From contig OZ242214.1 of NCBI GenBank assembly GCA_965206595.1, forward strand, positions 4,480,001-4,544,000: 64,000 nt of DNA, in the 5' to 3' direction. Position numbers and translations under genes: made by a program. Of this stretch, positions 1,603 to 8,345 are shown piece after piece. The notes beneath the pieces are model-generated. The model worked only from the letters and a program-made list of their open reading frames with translations. It searched no databases and was not told the origin of the DNA. The stretch's first letter is position 1; the number at the start of each line of letters is the position of its first letter. Origin of the DNA: Candidatus Latescibacterota bacterium. Lineage in GTDB: Bacteria; Latescibacterota; UBA2968; UBA8231.

Positions 1603-2484
1603 ATGGATGACAGGGAGCGGTATTACTGGGACCTGACGGGGTACCTGATCGTCAAGGGAGTCCTCGGTCCGGAGGAGCTGCAAAGGGCCAACGAGGCGGT
1701 CGATTACTGTCTTCAACACCACGTCTTCGATCCGGTGATGGATTCCGCCCGCCAGTCGCGGGCCCTGGGCGGTTCGCAGCGGCGGGCAATCCAGACCGAC
1801 ATGGTCCTGCTGACCCTGGAGAAACCGCACTGCGATCCGTTCCGTGAGATGCTCGCCCACCCGCAGGTCGTCGCCCGGCTCAACGTCATGTGCGAGCCCG
1901 GGTTCCGGTTCGATCACGGCCCCCACTTCATCGGCGGCGTCCGGGGAACGGAGGGCTTGGTGATGCACGGGGCCGGCGAACCCCACCGGCCGTTCGTCGG
2001 CTACCACCACCAGGGCGGCGAGTTCCACTGCCAGGGGGTGACCGTCTCTTGGTGCCTGGCCGATGCGCGCGCCGGCGACGGCGGCTTCGCCTGCGTTCCC
2101 GGCAGCCACAAATCGCGCGAGCCGATGCCGCCGGGAGTGCGGTCGTGCGACGCCGACATGGGCGTCGTCGAGCAGCCGGTGGTCGAAGCGGGGGACGTGC
2201 TGTTCTTCATGGACGGCGCCCAGACCCACGGCACCCTGCGGTGGAACGCCGACCACGAGCGGCGCTCCATCCTGTTCAAGTACGCCGGCCGCACCGCCTC
2301 CCGGGGAGGGGCCTCGCGGGAGGTGTCCCGGCCCGAGCGCTACTGGCCCGCGGAGATCGTCGGCGGCATGAGCGATGAGCAGCGGGCGGTGATGTTCGGG
2401 CCCTGCTCCGCCCCGGGGACGGACGAGGTGTTTCTGCGGGTGGATGAGGACGGCACGGTCCGCGTCGACAGGAAGGACGGTTAG
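1603..2484 (+). CDS. PhyH family Fe(II)/2OG enzyme (paralogue of 533..1429)
   Basis: 'YWDLTGYLIVKGVL', 'GGFACVPGSHK', 'AGDVLFF...THGT'; AGGAG RBS upstream. Confidence 0.85.
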   Translation: MDDRERYYWDLTGYLIVKGVLGPEELQRANEAVDYCLQHHVFDPVMDSARQSRALGGSQRRAIQTDMVLLTLEKPHCDPFREMLAHPQVVARLNVMCEPGFRFDHGPHFIGGVRGTEGLVMHGAGEPHRPFVGYHHQGGEFHCQGVTVSWCLADARAGDGGFACVPGSHKSREPMPPGVRSCDADMGVVEQPVVEAGDVLFFMDGAQTHGTLRWNADHERRSILFKYAGRTASRGGASREVSRPERYWPAEIVGGMSDEQRAVMFGPCSAPGTDEVFLRVDEDGTVRVDRKDG

Positions 2485-2488
2485 CCGG

Positions 2489-3370
2489 TCAGGACCCGGC
2501 GGGGCCCAAAAGCGTGTCGAGTGGGCTCTCGATACGCACCAGGTCCTTCCGCTGCACGTGGGTGTAGATCTCCGTCGTTTTCGAGCTCCTGTGTCCGAGG
2601 AGCTCCTGGATGTAGCGCAGATCGGTCCCCCCTTCGAGCAGGTGCGTCGCAAAGCTGTGTCTCAGGGTGTGCACGGTCACCCGCTTGCGAATTCCCGCGG
2701 CGGCGACCGCACGGGAGAACACCTTCTGCACCGACCGTTCGGTGAGATGCCGTCCTTCCCGGGCTCCGGGAAACAGCCACGTCGACGGCCGGTAAGCCTT
2801 CCAGTAGGACCGAAGATCCTCGAGAATCGCCCTGGGCAGCAGGGTGTAGCGATCCTTGCGCCCCTTGCCCTGCTGCACGCGGATCAACATGCGATCGCTG
2901 TCGATGTCGCTCACCTTGAGACGCACGACCTCCCCCACACGCAGCCCCCCGGCATACACCAGGGCCAGGATGACCCGGTGCTTGGGATTCCGAAGGGAAT
3001 CGAGCAGTCGCAGCATTTCCCGCTGGCTGAGGATTTCGGGAAGCTGGCGACCGCCACGCGGCCTGCGCAGACCCTCCAGGGAGGCGGGCTGCTTAAGGAC
3101 TTCCCCGTAGAGGAAGCTGAGAGCACTGTATAAAATGTTGAAGGCGGAGCGGCTCACCCCGCGGTCGAGGAACCATTCGAGGTGGGACCGCACCTCGTCA
3201 TGCCGTTCCCCCCGGTAGTCCCGTTTCCACTGAAGGAATCGCCGGCAGTAGCCCATGTACGACTTCTGCGTTTTCCTCGCGTACCCCCTCAGCTTCAGCT
3301 CGGACTCGACCCGGTTCAGGATGGCGACCTCTTCGTCGGTCAGGTCTGGATGTCTCCGATAGCGCCGCAT
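2489..3370 (-). CDS. Tyrosine recombinase, integron-integrase-like, with N-terminal SAM-like domain but without the IntI I2 insertion
   Basis: Catalytic R (GLRVGE), K (GKGRKDR), HxxR (HTLRHSFATH), H (LLGH) and Y (EIYTHV) are all present. N-terminal 'LRGYARKTQKSY'. Only 59 aa between KDR and HTLRH. Divergent from a cassette array. Confidence 0.9.
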   Translation of the reverse strand: MRRYRRHPDLTDEEVAILNRVESELKLRGYARKTQKSYMGYCRRFLQWKRDYRGERHDEVRSHLEWFLDRGVSRSAFNILYSALSFLYGEVLKQPASLEGLRRPRGGRQLPEILSQREMLRLLDSLRNPKHRVILALVYAGGLRVGEVVRLKVSDIDSDRMLIRVQQGKGRKDRYTLLPRAILEDLRSYWKAYRPSTWLFPGAREGRHLTERSVQKVFSRAVAAAGIRKRVTVHTLRHSFATHLLEGGTDLRYIQELLGHRSSKTTEIYTHVQRKDLVRIESPLDTLLGPAGS

Positions 3371-3505
3371 GGGCCCGGTTACTCCAAGGCAAAGGTTTGG
3401 CCCTGCCGTAGAGAAAGCCGTGCCAGTCCGACACGGAAACCGGAAATCGTCCTATCTGTCGCAACCGCAATGAGTCACGTCGGATATCCCGAATCGGGAA
3501 AATAG

Positions 3506-3534
3506 TTGCAACTGTTCATCCCGAAACGTACCAT
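3506..3534 (+). promoter_or_regulatory. Putative sigma70-type cassette promoter (Pc-like)
   Basis: TTGCAA (3506-3511), 17-bp spacer, TACCAT (3529-3534), pointing into the array about 60 bp before the first GTTA core. Confidence 0.6.
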
Positions 3535-3565
3535 CGTATCAGATAAGTAACACCCGGAGGCCATT

Positions 3566-3600
3566 ATCCGAACCATTTGTTCGGATTCAATCAGTTATGC
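3566..3600 (+). other. Putative attI-like primary recombination site
   Basis: Inverted repeat ATCCGAAC-CATTT-GTTCGGAT (3566-3586) followed by GTTATGC at 3594-3600, the exact complement of GCATAAC (4542-4548) that ends cassette 1. Confidence 0.65.
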
Positions 3601-3652
3601 GAATTTGCGCTCAGGGTTGACGTAAAGAAATCAAACGAAAGATAGCTACGCC

Positions 3653-4519
3653 TTGAAAGTGACGTTTCTCGGAACATCATCCGCTCCGTCGATGCCTATA
3701 CCGTTTTGCGTTTGTCAGGCGTGCTCAAACGCAAGGCGAGTTGGTGGAAAGAACCTTCGCAGGCGATCGTCCATCACAATCAACGACGAAGTGCTTGTGG
3801 ATATTGGCCCAGACATAGCGACCGCGTCATTCGATTACGACGTTTCGTTGACCGGAATCAGCGTCTGCCTATTGACTCATGCCCACGAGGACCACTTTGA
3901 TGCCGAGTTCATCATATCAAGACACGATGAATACGCAACTATCGTCGCACAGGACATGCTCCTTGCGGGTTCAATCGACGCGCTGAGGTCTATTGACACG
4001 ATTCTAGGCAGAAGGTGCTCGTACGGAAGCATCTTCGATCAAGAAACACAACGTGCCCTGAAGGTTAATCTGTTGACCGTCGAGCCATTCGAGACTCAAG
4101 TTGTCGGTGATTACCGTTTCACAGGATATCCCGCGAGTCACGGCACCGAGAAGGGATGCCTGCTTTACTCAATCGAGCAAGGTCAGCACGCTATATTTTA
4201 TGGTACTGATACATCGATTCTGTCGGAGAGAGTTTGGGAGCATCTTCTGCGCCAAGGCACGCAGTTCGACTTGCTCGTGCTCGATCACACGTACGGCATC
4301 GGTTTCGATGCTAGTCCGGCAGATCATCTGGCATCCGTTGATGTAATAGGCCACGTCGATCGCTTTCGGCGAAACGGTCTTCTTAAGGACAACGCGAAGG
4401 CATACGCGACTCACATTTCGCACGAAGGTTACATGGAGCATGACGAACTCGACGAGTATGCCGAAGCGCACGGTTACAGAGTCGCGTTTGACGGATTGGC
4501 GCTATCATTCAGTGTTTGA
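3653..4519 (+). CDS. MBL-fold metallohydrolase (PhnP-like), cassette 1
   Basis: 'KVTFLGTS..P.PFCVCQAC', HAHEDH metal motif, 'YGTDT', 'ATHISH'. Confidence 0.85.
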   Translation: MKVTFLGTSSAPSMPIPFCVCQACSNARRVGGKNLRRRSSITINDEVLVDIGPDIATASFDYDVSLTGISVCLLTHAHEDHFDAEFIISRHDEYATIVAQDMLLAGSIDALRSIDTILGRRCSYGSIFDQETQRALKVNLLTVEPFETQVVGDYRFTGYPASHGTEKGCLLYSIEQGQHAIFYGTDTSILSERVWEHLLRQGTQFDLLVLDHTYGIGFDASPADHLASVDVIGHVDRFRRNGLLKDNAKAYATHISHEGYMEHDELDEYAEAHGYRVAFDGLALSFSV

Positions 4520-4541
4520 ACAAGACACGAGCGCAAAACTC

Positions 4542-4632
4542 GCATAACAGCACGGTGTTGCGCGGCGGCGCATTCGCGCCTTGGCCTTCGGCAACCCACT
4601 TCGTGGGTTCGCAAACCGGCAGAACGTTAAGC
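4542..4632 (+). repeat. attC-like site 1
   Basis: GCATAAC-agca-CGGTGTTGCG ... CGCAAACCG-gcagaac-GTTAAGC; internal hairpins GGCGC/GCGCC, GCC-ttc-GGC and AACCCAC-ttc-GTGGGTT. Confidence 0.85.
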
Positions 4633-4972
4633 GAAGGCCAAGAGAATTTGATTGTTTTTGTGGAGTATAGATCATGATAGGGAGTGGGAGGGATCGGTAC
4701 TATCCGACCCAGGTCGGCGCTGTTTGAAGAGATGGGCAGCTCGTCGTTTGTGGATTTCCCCACCCCGTCCGGCGCGCTAATACCGCTTGGGCGTTGCGTT
4801 TTACCTGGTTCAGGAAAAAGACGAGATCAATGGGCAGTTGGAGATCAGGACCTGCGGATTGGGAGACCGACGAAAGATGGAGGGCTGAGCAAGGGCGCCG
4901 GACGGCCTCTCCACCGCCCAAGCCCGAGAGTTTTCTCCCATCGTGGTCGGGCAGAGCAGGCCCTCGCTTAAC
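4626..4972 (+). ncRNA. ORF-less cassette 2, candidate structured ncRNA
   Basis: Paralogous to 5044-5381 with no reading frame shared over the full length; 11-bp long-range helix 4765-4775/4895-4905 covaries between the copies. Confidence 0.5.
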
Positions 4973-5050
4973 ACCTGTGTCCCCGGCTCCGGGCCCTGGG
5001 GGCCCCTCGCGCAACCGCTTCGCGGTTCGGGGGCACGGAAGACGTTAAGC
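4966..5050 (+). repeat. attC-like site 2
   Basis: GCTTAAC-acc-TGTGTCCCCG ... GGGCCC-tgg-GGGCCC ... AACCGC-ttc-GCGGTT-CGGGGGCACG-gaagac-GTTAAGC. Confidence 0.85.
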
Positions 5051-5381
5051 GAAGGCAAACGAAGTTTTAAGGATTGTGTGGAGTATAGATCATGATAGGG
5101 TGTCGGAAAGGTCGGTGGTATCCATCGAATGTGGCGCAATTTGCGAGGTGGGCACCTCGTCGCGAGGGACTATCCCCACCCCGTCTGGCGCGCTGTTACC
5201 GACCGTGCGTTGCGTGCCGGTTACGAGATAAAAGCCCATCGGTCGAGATCTCGGAAGCTGGCTCACGATTTAGAGTTGGAATGGAGATGGCTCAGGGAGA
5301 AGGGCGCCAGACGGCCTCTCCACCTCCCAAGCCTGAGAGGTCTTTCTCTTCGTGGTCGATGTGTGCAGGCCCTCGCCTAAC
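5044..5381 (+). ncRNA. ORF-less cassette 3, candidate structured ncRNA
   Basis: Shares blocks GTGGAGTATAGATCATGATAGGG, TCCCCACCCCGTCYGGCGCGCT and AAGGGCGCCRGACGGCCTCTCCACC with cassette 2; helix 5181-5191/5304-5314. Confidence 0.5.
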
Positions 5382-5458
5382 ACCTGTTCCCCCGGCTCCG
5401 GGCCCTGCGGGCCCTTCGCGCAACCGCTTCGCGGTTCGTGGGCACCAAGACGATATAT
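5375..5458 (+). repeat. attC-like site 3 (right core altered to GATATAT)
   Basis: Near copy of site 2 (GCCTAACACCTGT...GGGCCC-tgc-GGGCCC...AACCGCTTCGCGGTT), ending AAGAC-GATATAT. Confidence 0.8.
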
Positions 5459-5550
5459 GACATGGGTTGTCACAGTACCAGTGAAATTCGACAGAGGCAA
5501 AGCTGGCACGGTTGAAATCATGAGCCTGCAGGCGCTGGAGAAAAACTGAC

Positions 5551-6042
5551 GTGGATCGCGTAGCCGTATTCGCAGATGTACAGAATGTTTACTACACAGT
5601 TAAGCAGCAACATAATTGCCATTTCGACTATGGTTCTTTCCTCAGGGAGGCGACAGCCGGCCGGAAACTGGTGAAGGCAGGAGCCTATGCTATTGACAAA
5701 GGCGACAGAAAGCAGGCCCAATTTCAGCAAATTCTGAAACGGCTCGGTTTTGAGGTAAAGCTCGCGCCTTATATTCAGAGAGCTGACGGCTCAGCCAAAG
5801 GGGACTGGGACGTGGGCATTACGGTCGATATGTTGGAGTACGCAGATCGCGTGGATGTCGCTGTCCTGGCTTCAGGTGACGGAGACTACGCGCCTGCAAT
5901 TGACAAGCTAATCAAGGAATCCAAGGTATCCGTCGAGGTGTACGGTGTCCCAGGACTAACTGCTAGTCGTCTAATCGAATCGTCGACGCGATTTGTGCCA
6001 ATTCAAGGAGATCTGTTGCTGCCTATTCCCACCACGTGGTGA
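5551..6042 (+). CDS. NYN domain (LabA/DUF88, PIN-like) protein, cassette 4
   Basis: 'VAVFADVQN', 'KGDWDVGITVD', 'LASGDGDY' acidic motifs. Confidence 0.88.
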   Translation: MDRVAVFADVQNVYYTVKQQHNCHFDYGSFLREATAGRKLVKAGAYAIDKGDRKQAQFQQILKRLGFEVKLAPYIQRADGSAKGDWDVGITVDMLEYADRVDVAVLASGDGDYAPAIDKLIKESKVSVEVYGVPGLTASRLIESSTRFVPIQGDLLLPIPTTW

Positions 6043-6130
6043 CGTGGAAGCGACACTGTTGCAAAGCCATGCACGCTAACGCACTCTCGCGTCGCTACCT
6101 CTCTGCGTTGATCAGCCTTGGAGCAATCAT

Positions 6131-6161
6131 ACCCACGTCATATATACGGAAGACGTTACCT
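6131..6161 (+). repeat. Collapsed attC-like junction between cassettes 4 and 5
   Basis: ACCCACGTCATATAT (complements the cassette 4 start) directly followed by ACGGAAGAC-GTTACCT; internal arms absent. Confidence 0.6.
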
Positions 6162-6190
6162 GCCATGGCAGTGCCCAGAAGGAGAGACAC

Positions 6191-7323
6191 ATGAAGGCCC
6201 TGACATCCATTATCGCCGCCTCAATCCTTCTCCTCTCGCCCATCCTCGCCCACGAACGAGAAGAACCCCCGGAGGGAGCCGTGGCCCGAACCGTCCTGCC
6301 AGACGCCAAGATGCCGATCATGAACGAGCACTCCCGTTCCACCCTTGTCTGCGCGATGTACGCCCTGCTGCCGGCTCTCGGGCAACAGGGCTGGTCGATC
6401 CCTCGACTGGAAGCGCTGACGGGATACGCCTTCTACTTTCAGATGCGGGAGGGCGGCGAGTCGGTCTTCGACGACGATCTCGATTGGGGCCTGGCCATGC
6501 ACGTCCTCGACATCTTTGGTCAAGCGAAAGTCTATGATGCGGACAAGAACTCGGACGTTGATCTCCCTGCGCTCAAGGCCGAAGCGCGAGACGCAGTCGT
6601 CGCCAGCCTGGAGAACGGACTTCCCAGCCTCGTCTGGGCGCCACTGAGCCTGGAGCAGAGGGGCAAGGTCCATTTCGCATGCTGGGGCCTCATCGTCGGC
6701 TACAACGCGGCAGACGAAACATACTTGATCCGCCAACCGGCCGAGAAGCTCGACTACCCGGTCCGCTTTGACGCCATCGGGTTCGCCGATCCGAGAGATT
6801 GGTTCCGCGTCGGCACCTTCAAGCCGAAAGAACTTGACGACAACGCTCTGCACCTCACCTCACTCCGCAATGCCGTCGCCTTCGCGAACGGCACTCGCTA
6901 CGACAACCCCCCAGGTCCGTCGAGGCCGCCCTCGTGCATCCCCCGAAAAACCCCTATGGATTCGCCGCCTACGAGCTCTGGCAGGAAGCGTTCGAATCTG
7001 ACGTAAATCTGAACGCCACGTTCTTCCACACAGAAACCCTGAAACCGCGTAGAGAGGCCGCGGCCGCCTACCTGCGGGAGCTCACCCATGTCTATCCGGC
7101 CGCCGCCAATCCGCTGGAAGCAGCAGCCGTTCACTATGATCGAGAGGTCGAATCCATCACCGCAATCTTCGACCTGTGCGTTGCCGCCACCAAGCACGAG
7201 CCCAAGGCCTTCACCCCCGACCAGCGCGCCGAAACCCGCTCCCTCATCGCCCAGCCGTTGAAGGCCGACCGGGCCGCCGTGGCGCAGATCGAGGCCGCGC
7301 TCAAGATTCTGGAGACGCCGTGA
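6191..7323 (+). CDS. Secreted hypothetical protein (possible BtrH/C39-peptidase-like fold), split by a frameshift near 6940; cassette 5
   Basis: Signal-peptide-like N-terminus; ORF 6191..7006 overlaps ORF 6934..7323; 'WGLIVGYN' motif; both parts lie in one cassette. Confidence 0.6.
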
Positions 7324-7407
7324 GGCAGGCTCAGCGTGCTCTTGACCGGGGCCCATCGTGAGGGGGGAGTACGCTGTTTCTTTGCCGATTCTCAAACTGC
7401 CACAGGC

Positions 7408-7490
7408 AGGTAACACGTCCGTGCCCGGCTTCGGGCTTACGCCCTTCGCGCAACCGCTTTCGCGGTTCGGGCACGGCGAAAACGTTATGT
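7408..7490 (+). repeat. attC-like site 5
   Basis: AGGTAAC-acgt-CCGTGCCCG ... GGGC-ttac-GCCC ... AACCGC-tttc-GCGGTT-CGGGCACGG-cgaaaac-GTTATGT (perfect 9-bp L arms). Confidence 0.88.
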
Positions 7491-7538
7491 GACATGGAAT
7501 AACTACCCCTAGATGAAATTTTCGCTCTACGAGCTATA

Positions 7539-8345
7539 ATGACAGAAGCAAAAGTTCTCTCACAAGATGACCTCGACCACTTCGAGACACATGGCTACAT
7601 CATTTTTCGCGGCGCATTTGATCCAGATGACTGCCGGCAGATGGAGGACATTGTCTGGCGTTGGTTGGAACGGCATGGTATCATGCGGAACGACCCCAGC
7701 ACCTGGGATCGGAATCAGGCAGGTGGGCTAAGCCGGACGGTTCGATCTACCCGTGTATTTCGCGATGCAGTATCAGAGCAGTTCGTATCGGCGATCGATC
7801 AGCTGTTGGGAACAGGTAGTTGGGAGAAACCCCGAGATTGGGGCAGTTTTGTGTTCTCGTTCCCCGAAGCCCTCGATGAACAGTGGAATGTCGCTAGCGG
7901 GAATTGGCACTGGCGCAACTCGGGTCTCCGCAACGTGGATAAGCTTGATGGGCTTTTCAATTTCTCGTTCATAACCGAGGTTCAATCTCACGGCGGTGGA
8001 ACGCACATAGCCGACGGGAGTCATCACCTGATAAGGCACTTCTACCGCACGCAAGAGAGCCTGTTTTCCCGGAACGACAGGATAGTCAAGAAGAGGTTCT
8101 TTAGTACTCATCCATGGCTCAGGGAACTGACGCAGGCAAGCGAGAATTCCATCACTCGCGTCAGACGGTTTAGGGATCAAACGACTGATGTTAATGGATT
8201 CCCCGTCCGCATCATTGAGTTGACCGGGAAGCCTGGTGACGCCATGATCGGCCATCCACTCCTGATGCACTGTCGGTCAACGAACTGTGCTGACGTGCCG
8301 AGGTTCATGAGGGCCTGTGAAATACACACGACCGCTGACAAATAG
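7539..8345 (+). CDS. PhyH family dioxygenase, cassette 6
   Basis: 'HFETHGYIIFRGAF', 'GGGTHIADGSHH', 'GKPGDAMIGHPLLMH'. Confidence 0.8.
   Translation: MTEAKVLSQDDLDHFETHGYIIFRGAFDPDDCRQMEDIVWRWLERHGIMRNDPSTWDRNQAGGLSRTVRSTRVFRDAVSEQFVSAIDQLLGTGSWEKPRDWGSFVFSFPEALDEQWNVASGNWHWRNSGLRNVDKLDGLFNFSFITEVQSHGGGTHIADGSHHLIRHFYRTQESLFSRNDRIVKKRFFSTHPWLRELTQASENSITRVRRFRDQTTDVNGFPVRIIELTGKPGDAMIGHPLLMHCRSTNCADVPRFMRACEIHTTADK

Follow-up and report, generated by a model that had tools for sequence, protein, structure and literature searches.

The window analysed here is a stretch of 64,000 nucleotides from Candidatus Latescibacterota bacterium (assembly GCA_965206595.1, contig OZ242214.1, positions 4,480,001 to 4,544,000 of the forward strand). 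Near its start lies an integron-like array, comprising a tyrosine recombinase gene, an attI-like region and, downstream of attI on the + strand, a row of units split by imperfect inverted repeats of ~85 nt with ...AAC / GTT... ends (Table 1). The second and third of these units, called cas2 and cas3, are the subject of this report. An earlier note on this DNA had described them as tandem cassettes without an open reading frame (ORF), in positions 2 and 3 behind the promoter Pc; they are indeed the second and third cassettes when read relative to attI (Pc itself was not located). The analysis indicates that cas2 and cas3 are probably members of a small, lineage-restricted family of gene-less cassettes, constrained at the level of the nucleotides rather than of a protein.

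Both units have the features by which an integron cassette is recognized, i.e., an attC site with inverted core sites and a crossover point between G and TT. They sit in an array with attI, and the adjoining recombinase matches the integron integrase only below the family cut-off (its top NCBIfam family is TIGR02249, integron integrase, at 223.6 bits with a cut-off of 265). The crossover GTT of the attI-like stretch, which ends ...AATCAGTT, was read from the sequence at 3594-3596, and the first cassette starts at 3595. For cas2, the attC profile matches at 4968-5049, the R''/R' arms (4961-4972 and 5044-5055) are paired, and GCTTAAC...GTTAAGC stands at 4964-5050. The attC of cas3 (GCCTAAC...GACG) is shortened after the G of R' by a unit carrying an NYN-domain gene; an identical cas3 found elsewhere (P0004, see below) has the intact ...GAC GTT AGG junction.

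The two cassettes are diverged paralogues: BLAST aligns them at 69% identity over 339 nt, with an E value of 4.4e-31. The lengths of 347 and 338 bp previously assigned to them hold for the bodies without attC, but not for the whole cassettes (418 and 408 bp). Their identity is clumped. Across 316 body columns, of which 66.8% are identical, the longest identical runs measure 24, 15 and 13 columns; runs of such length are rare in column shuffles (P=0.0048 for the longest, P=0.00075 for the top three). The shared blocks listed in the earlier note are the identical runs of this alignment; all the sequence features that it listed, blocks and helices alike, are in place, and its observation as a whole is confirmed. 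One of the blocks, B1, is a 23-mer, GTGGAGTATAGATCATGATAGGG, which is present at exactly two places in the window (100 shuffles give an expectation of 0) and looks like a ribosome-binding site with its start codon. Among 185,579 reference genomes, a 20-mer of B1 had a single exact match, in a Sulfuricurvum metagenome-assembled genome (L037, 1339-1367), where it belongs to an unrelated ATPase-like gene and spans the ribosome-binding site and start codon of that gene; about one chance match is expected by estimate, and the pattern was so strict that it missed even the copies in the congeneric genome described below. This chance match shows the apparent likeness of B1 to a translation start.

The family is represented by four DNA copies: cas2 and cas3 in their own genome (G000), and two copies, G001a and G001b, in a congeneric genome (G001). 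Searches of the whole of G000 with BLAST and nhmmer profiles gave no copies beyond cas2 and cas3, and full-length copies were found only in G000 and G001, i.e., in 2 of 168 genomes of the phylum (61 relatives and 76 family genomes were searched as well). The two G001 copies are 90% and 83% identical to cas2. G001a lies directly after an attI-like stretch homologous to 3511-3603; G001b lies after an acetyltransferase-like cassette and before the same NYN unit that follows cas3. In a genome of another genus (G019), there is a cassette that resembles the 3′ block and attC. It was considered as a fifth member and left out of the pair counts, because only its 3′ end matches the four-copy nhmmer profile (profile positions 251-345, E 0.0087) and its helix register differs. 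Collections of 5.8 and 1.8 billion predicted proteins, searched with the family ORFs, returned only family members: four variants from ENA assemblies (P0001-P0004), each a singleton cluster. These are known as predicted ORFs from metagenomes, with nucleotides inferred from the residues. P0001 is cas2-like, P0002 and P0003 are cas3-like, and P0004 is the cas3 ORF letter for letter, which there crosses an intact attC end and continues into another cassette. The family is thus found in different array positions and beside different neighbours (the G001 copies and P0004), which implies that the unit is a mobile cassette, as had been supposed, though the family is very small.

No match was found in viral contigs (with P0002 as the query), nor did blastn find one among 72,556 plasmid and 50,697 phage records. 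In metagenome contigs, nine loci matched a 21-mer of the 3′ block; all were unrelated coding DNA, with nhmmer matches of at most 36 nt and E values of at least 0.024, and they were rejected. Contigs of one sequencing run, X4, join 3590 to 5452; in the array that results, the NYN unit follows attI directly and cassettes 1-3 are missing. One further X4 contig joins 4802 to 4891 and would be a cas2-like cassette with its core missing or replaced.

No reading frame is kept along the length of the cassettes across the four DNA copies and the four ORF-only variants, in agreement with the earlier note; the DNA copies are separated by 1- and 2-nt indels. Residues 67-97 of P0003, for example, are 93.5% identical to frame 2 of cas3; in cas3 itself and in P0004, frame 1 is the one used for that DNA. 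Similarly, residues 1-47 of P0001 follow one frame of G001b and residues 49-89 follow another. Sequencing or assembly error as the source of these frameshifts is ruled out by two contigs: one, built independently from run X1, equals 4589-6621 with 0 differences, and one from run X4 carries two 1-nt omissions (4810 and 4815) that are also present in G001b. GC at codon position 2 is 0.38-0.46 in all eight neighbouring ORFs; the four copies show no GC periodicity by codon position in any of their 24 frames, no position falling below 0.53. Depletion of stop codons relative to dinucleotide shuffles was not clear (P 0.05-0.55 by copy and measure), and the four family ORFs had no match in Pfam. AlphaFold2 models were unconfident (mean predicted local distance difference test scores 40.9 and 47.3), which is weak evidence because the models are single-sequence. 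The + strand ORFs of 84-122 codons that are present in cas2 and cas3 are what their GC content would lead one to expect, with no surplus over shuffles. Taking into consideration the different frames in near-identical DNA, the real indels, the flat codon GC, the undepleted stops and the lack of a known family, cas2 and cas3 are most likely non-coding. The conclusion is that the cassettes do not encode a conserved protein; a translated ORF, if short or free of constraint, could still be present.

What has been kept, apart from B1, includes the arms of two long-range helices, both described in the earlier note and both found as described. The first, H1, is an inverted repeat of 14 nt at 93% complementarity, with a perfect 11-bp core, which encloses 119 nt in cas2 and 112 nt in cas3; a C-G pair of cas2 (4770/4900) is replaced by a T-A pair in cas3 (5186/5309). 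The chance level of such a feature can be judged from 3000 random 340-nt windows of the host genome, 1.3% of which hold a perfect 11-bp inverted repeat with a spacing of 60-200 nt. The second helix, H2, joins the region of the B1 start codon to a site near the 3′ end of the body, and its eight pairs, two of them G.U, are intact in all four DNA copies. H1 and H2 together have 21 pairs, and all 84 cells are paired across the four copies. One pair has changed on both sides, and two changes are one-sided (A-U to G.U and U-A to U.G), the latter keeping the pairing on the + strand only; all four substitutions within the 42 helix columns preserve pairing. As inferred from residues, P0001-P0003 have C/G or T/A at the covarying H1 pair, never a mixture, and P0002 has changed a G.U of H2 to A-U. 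Both helices are present in the + strand minimum-free-energy fold of cas2 and in that of cas3, and RNAalifold gives a nested series consisting of a trivial extension of the attC stem, H2, a poor G-rich/C-rich pairing, and H1. Inside H1 lies the core that had been described as variable. It does differ between variants, but there are merely two or three versions, and three of the four DNA copies (cas2, G001a and G001b) share one, the core of cas3 being different.

Table 1. Features of the integron-like array, in window coordinates
Feature	Position	Counterpart in cas3	Strand	Description
Tyrosine recombinase, integron-integrase-like, 293 amino acids	2489..3370		-	Pfam Phage_integrase (2.4e-41) and Phage_int_SAM_4 (SAM-like N-domain)
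attI-like region	3511..3603		+	End ...AATCAGTTA; homologous to the stretch directly before copy G001a in G001
Cassette 1	3595..4626		+	MBL-fold hydrolase ORF 3653-4519 (Pfam Lactamase_B_2) and attC ~4547-4631 (attC profile match 4547-4631)
Cassette 2 (cas2)	4627..5044		+	418 bp: body 4627-4963, attC 4964-5050; G/TTAAGC at 4626 and 5044
Block B1	4660..4682	5078-5100	+	GGAG, 8 nt, ATG, then TGA TAG in the +1 frame; nearly invariant in 4/4 DNA copies
H2 5′ arm	4670..4677	5088-5095	+	GATCATGA, includes ATG; pairs with TCGTGGTC
H1 5′ arm	4765..4778	5181-5194	+	Inverted repeat with the 3′ arm
Variable core	4800..4890	5216-5299	+	Between the H1 arms, only GCGTTGCGT is alignable
H1 3′ arm	4892..4905	5301-5314	+	Within the conserved block 4891-4924 (cas3 5300-5333)
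H2 3′ arm	4941..4948	5350-5357	+	TCGTGGTC; 8 pairs
Cassette 3 (cas3)	5045..5452		+	408 bp: body 5045-5375, attC 5376-5452; attC profile match

A tentative mechanism can be offered for these cassettes, namely that each is a cis-acting structured part of the array transcript, with H2 lying over the conserved start site and H1 closing off a free core. As cassettes, the two are taken to be moved by the integrase via their own attC sites. In the proposed mechanism, the body would be transcribed on the + strand, as a structured part of the RNA that extends from the integron promoter through the array. Within it, H1 (11-14 bp) would close off the freely evolving core of ~115 nt, and H2 would bury the AUG of the conserved ribosome-binding block. 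The element may then act in cis on the translation or the stability of the cassette transcript, possibly as a regulated site at which ribosomes are loaded or blocked before the next cassette. All of these mechanistic steps are inference; what has been observed is the anatomy of the cassettes, their mobility, and the fact that no frame is kept.

A number of results weigh against this mechanism. The covariation amounts to one event between two clades, at 1 of the 21 pairs, and its score is reached by 118 of 500 shuffles of the four DNA copies; furthermore, a C-G to T-A change is uninformative on the strand, and on RNA versus DNA. Fold energies are ordinary in comparison with shuffles (z = +0.80, -0.75, -0.42 and -0.71, the minus strand among them). 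Rfam gave 0 matches at gathering score in the whole window, and at E<=10 only three eukaryotic families, with 15-18 bits. Other candidate pairings (GCTTGGGCG/CGCCCAAGC in cas2, TTGCGAGGTGG/CCACCTCCCAA in cas3, and the G-rich 5′ stretch with CTCTCCACC) were rejected, none being common to both clades. G019 holds a doubtful distant relative, in which alignment of the 5′ arm would put G.A at the covarying site; its 3′ arm is paired in a different register by the predicted fold. A consensus scan of 4627-5452 found no sigma-70-like promoter or intrinsic terminator (other promoter types are outside such a scan). Finally, B1, as GGAG-N8-ATG, is like a true translation start, and 95-122 codons are open from it in cas3, G001a, P0002 and P0003; in the two other variants, cas2 and G001b, the open frames have only 13 and 17 codons. 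Two metatranscriptome runs, X19 and X20, were compared over 2400-7600. Their contigs match 5450-5766 (in the NYN unit, nearly exact), stretches resembling attC and several further short segments, with none listed on the cas2 and cas3 bodies; having a depth of 2-4 and being available as contigs only, these data are uninformative either way. Of the interpretation in the earlier note, which is supported in part, the structured RNA comes down to a single covariation event, with folding energy at the level of shuffles and no Rfam family, and the RNA reading of cas2 and cas3 is weak.

Integron recombination uses folded single strands, and this established route makes it conceivable that the inverted repeat and the blocks act in single- or double-stranded DNA, whether through the fold of a recombination intermediate, through protein binding, or simply as parts of a selfishly spreading cassette, with no RNA function needed. 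The C-G to T-A change preserves the repeat on both strands, as such an explanation would have it, and the pairing of attC already reaches 14 nt, from the first bases of the cassette to the region before R''. The scan for sigma-70-like promoters and terminators, having found no transcription signals inside the cassettes, also fits a role in DNA. In being paralogous and lineage-restricted, the family resembles the non-coding cassettes of Vibrio, for which selfish spread and gene conversion are proposed in the relevant passages of PMC1382264. However, the G.U pairs of H2 and of the H1 extension would read as C.A mismatches on the bottom strand, the one that takes part in recombination at attC; H1, on inspection, has no flanking AAC/GTT core sites; and the z-scores of minus-strand folds are likewise unremarkable. 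A role at the level of DNA is, on balance, rather doubtful.

Alternatively, the cassettes might be drifting remnants without function, in which the blocks reflect recent common descent, gene conversion between paralogues, or chance. The tiny size of the family (2 of 168 phylum genomes with full-length copies, and four related ORFs that are each a singleton cluster in the protein collection) would suit this explanation, as would the strain variants without the cassettes (the 3590 to 5452 joint of run X4) and the absence of a thermodynamic or family signal in the fold z-scores and in Rfam. It is unlikely in view of the clumping of the blocks, which is significant by column shuffles, and of the retention of the same blocks in both clades. 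Drift would also have to accommodate the four helix-column substitutions, every one of which keeps the pairing, and the 3′ block and its surroundings, which are still recognisable in the other genus (G019).

Translation from GGAG-N8-ATG, yielding either a small peptide of 13-17 residues (cas2 and G001b) or a fast-evolving basic protein of 95-122 residues (cas3, G001a, P0002 and P0003), is decidedly unlikely, even though B1 is the best-conserved block and, as read from the sequence, is immediately preceded or met by stops in all three frames. Neighbouring cassette genes have GGAG at a similar spacing (also by reading), the first codons are M-I/R-G in all variants, and P0002 and P0003 are open from the ATG of B1 to a TAA in R''. 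Beyond about ten residues, however, lengths and sequences diverge and frames hop; the codon-position GC signal and the depletion of stops are both absent; and there is no homologue, family or confident fold. The ORF-only variants, moreover, are sampled with a bias, since a variant that lacks a long ORF has no way into a protein database.

The earlier note had also suggested that the core could be a guide, a decoy or a template for building cassettes. As a trans-acting RNA, the cassette would direct its variable core, as guide or decoy, against phage, plasmid or host sequences, and a conserved scaffold around a region that differs between variants, the further X4 variant joining 4802 to 4891, and the precedent of an integron-encoded trans-acting small RNA (sRNA-Xcc1, as cited in PMC8876359) are what such an RNA would lead one to expect. 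The cores themselves do not bear this out. Together with the 5′ variable stretch, their best matches in the host genome reach 28-32 bits, and those of shuffled queries reach a mean of 28-30 and a maximum of 32-34; the plasmid and phage collections gave no match, no nuclease or reverse transcriptase partner gene travels with the cassette, and the same core is present in three of the four DNA copies. A guide or decoy is very improbable, and with cores that match nothing in the host above shuffled queries, nor in plasmids or phages, and no reverse transcriptase nearby, the suggestion finds support in none of its three forms. A mobile, exchangeable RNA module, in which B1, H1 and H2 would form a scaffold presenting a swappable core of ~85-115 nt as guide or decoy, is very improbable; if it were true, integrons would stockpile programmable RNAs as well as genes.

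Two other candidates were rejected. A retron, a diversity-generating retroelement or a template was discarded on the grounds that the genome has just two RVT_1 matches, at 6.11 Mb and 2.64 Mb, which are ~1.6 and 1.8 Mb from the window at 4.48 Mb. An invertible DNA switch was discarded as well: the reverse-complemented cas3 core scores 14 against the cas2 core, the shuffle mean being 14.8, and the blocks inside the repeat keep one orientation.

Several observations concern the surroundings of the two cassettes. The counterpart of the 2489-3370 integrase, itself a short one, in the congeneric genome (G001:C1:1175145-1176021) is 97% identical and split over two frames, and it is on a different contig from the G001 array that begins with the attI-like stretch. 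The complementarity of R' and R'' extends by 7-9 further bases into the first bases of the cassette and the stretch before R'' (4626-4639/4959-4972), and cassette 1, judged by eye, shows the same extension (3594-3610/4536-4552). Thus, the attC stems in this array are longer than the textbook 7-bp core sites. The NYN unit downstream of cas3 is 693 bp long (5453-6145), holds its NYN-domain gene at 5551-6042, and ends in 15-nt terminal inverted repeats, ATATATGAC[A/G]TGGGT. It begins exactly after the G of the cas3 R' box, at the expected cassette junction, and in G001 the same unit stands behind copy G001b, where its right flank is different. The unit is either a small transposon-like insertion or a cassette whose crossover sequence is odd. 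Further downstream, two overlapping + strand ORFs (6191-7006 and 6934-7323) resemble one gene broken near C- and A-runs at ~6910-6950, and a run X4 contig has single-base omissions at 6912 and 6917, within this region.

Gene-less cassettes as such have been known since the work on Vibrio, in whose chromosomal integrons Boucher et al. (2006, PMC1382264), in the passages drawn on here, describe paralogous, lineage-restricted non-coding cassettes, with purifying selection, gene conversion, promoters or selfishness proposed for them. Like those, cas2 and cas3 have a normal attC without a gene, paralogues in one array and close homologues in near relatives only; they also show conservation over the whole length without a codon pattern, and have neither a protein match nor a synonymous pattern, as the same passages require. 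They fail the operational rule of that paper, by which no ORF exceeds 150 bp, because they hold longer ORFs. They differ from the Vibrio cassettes, so far as these passages describe them, in their Latescibacterota host, in a GC content of ~60%, in having two copies per genome instead of tens, and in a kept long-range inverted repeat and a ribosome-binding-like block. In oral Treponema, sigma-70-like promoters were shown by reporter assay in ORF-less cassettes (Tansirichaiya et al. 2019, PMC6557892, in the portion used here; also PMC8876359). cas2 and cas3 are similarly ORF-less and near the start of the array, and could alter the expression of neighbouring cassettes, but the consensus scan found no sigma-70 promoter inside these GC-rich units.

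Two further systems bear on what the product of such a cassette might be. In Xanthomonas campestris, sRNA-Xcc1 is an integron-encoded trans-acting small RNA (Chen et al. 2011, as cited in PMC8876359). Like it, cas2 and cas3 might give a candidate non-coding product from an ORF-less cassette; for them, no promoter, terminator, transcript or target was found. In class 1 integrons, short ORFs borne by attI (ORF-11, ORF-17 and ORF-18) and attC hairpins modulate the translation of cassettes, according to PMC8876359 (section 3.4). The favoured mechanism for cas2 and cas3 is of this type, with a conserved putative ribosome-binding site and short ORF ahead of cassette genes and mRNA hairpins near; the difference is that those ORFs sit in attI, whereas the putative elements described here sit in a mobile cassette. 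To the gene-less kind, already known, cas2 and cas3 thus add a small new family with a kept long-range helix. Among the best-ranked literature matches listed, none combines ‘Latescibacter’ with ‘integron’.

A sizeable share of integron cassettes are gene-less, their roles being largely unknown, and few have been tied to promoters or small RNAs. In cas2 and cas3, there are features near the promoter end of an array that can be mutated: a long-range helix that has been kept, another helix that covers a conserved start site, and a core that can be replaced. Being concrete, these features allow the two cassettes to be used in testing whether gene-less cassettes function as RNA or as folded DNA, or do not act at all, and they place gene-less cassettes in Latescibacterota, a phylum with little integron study.

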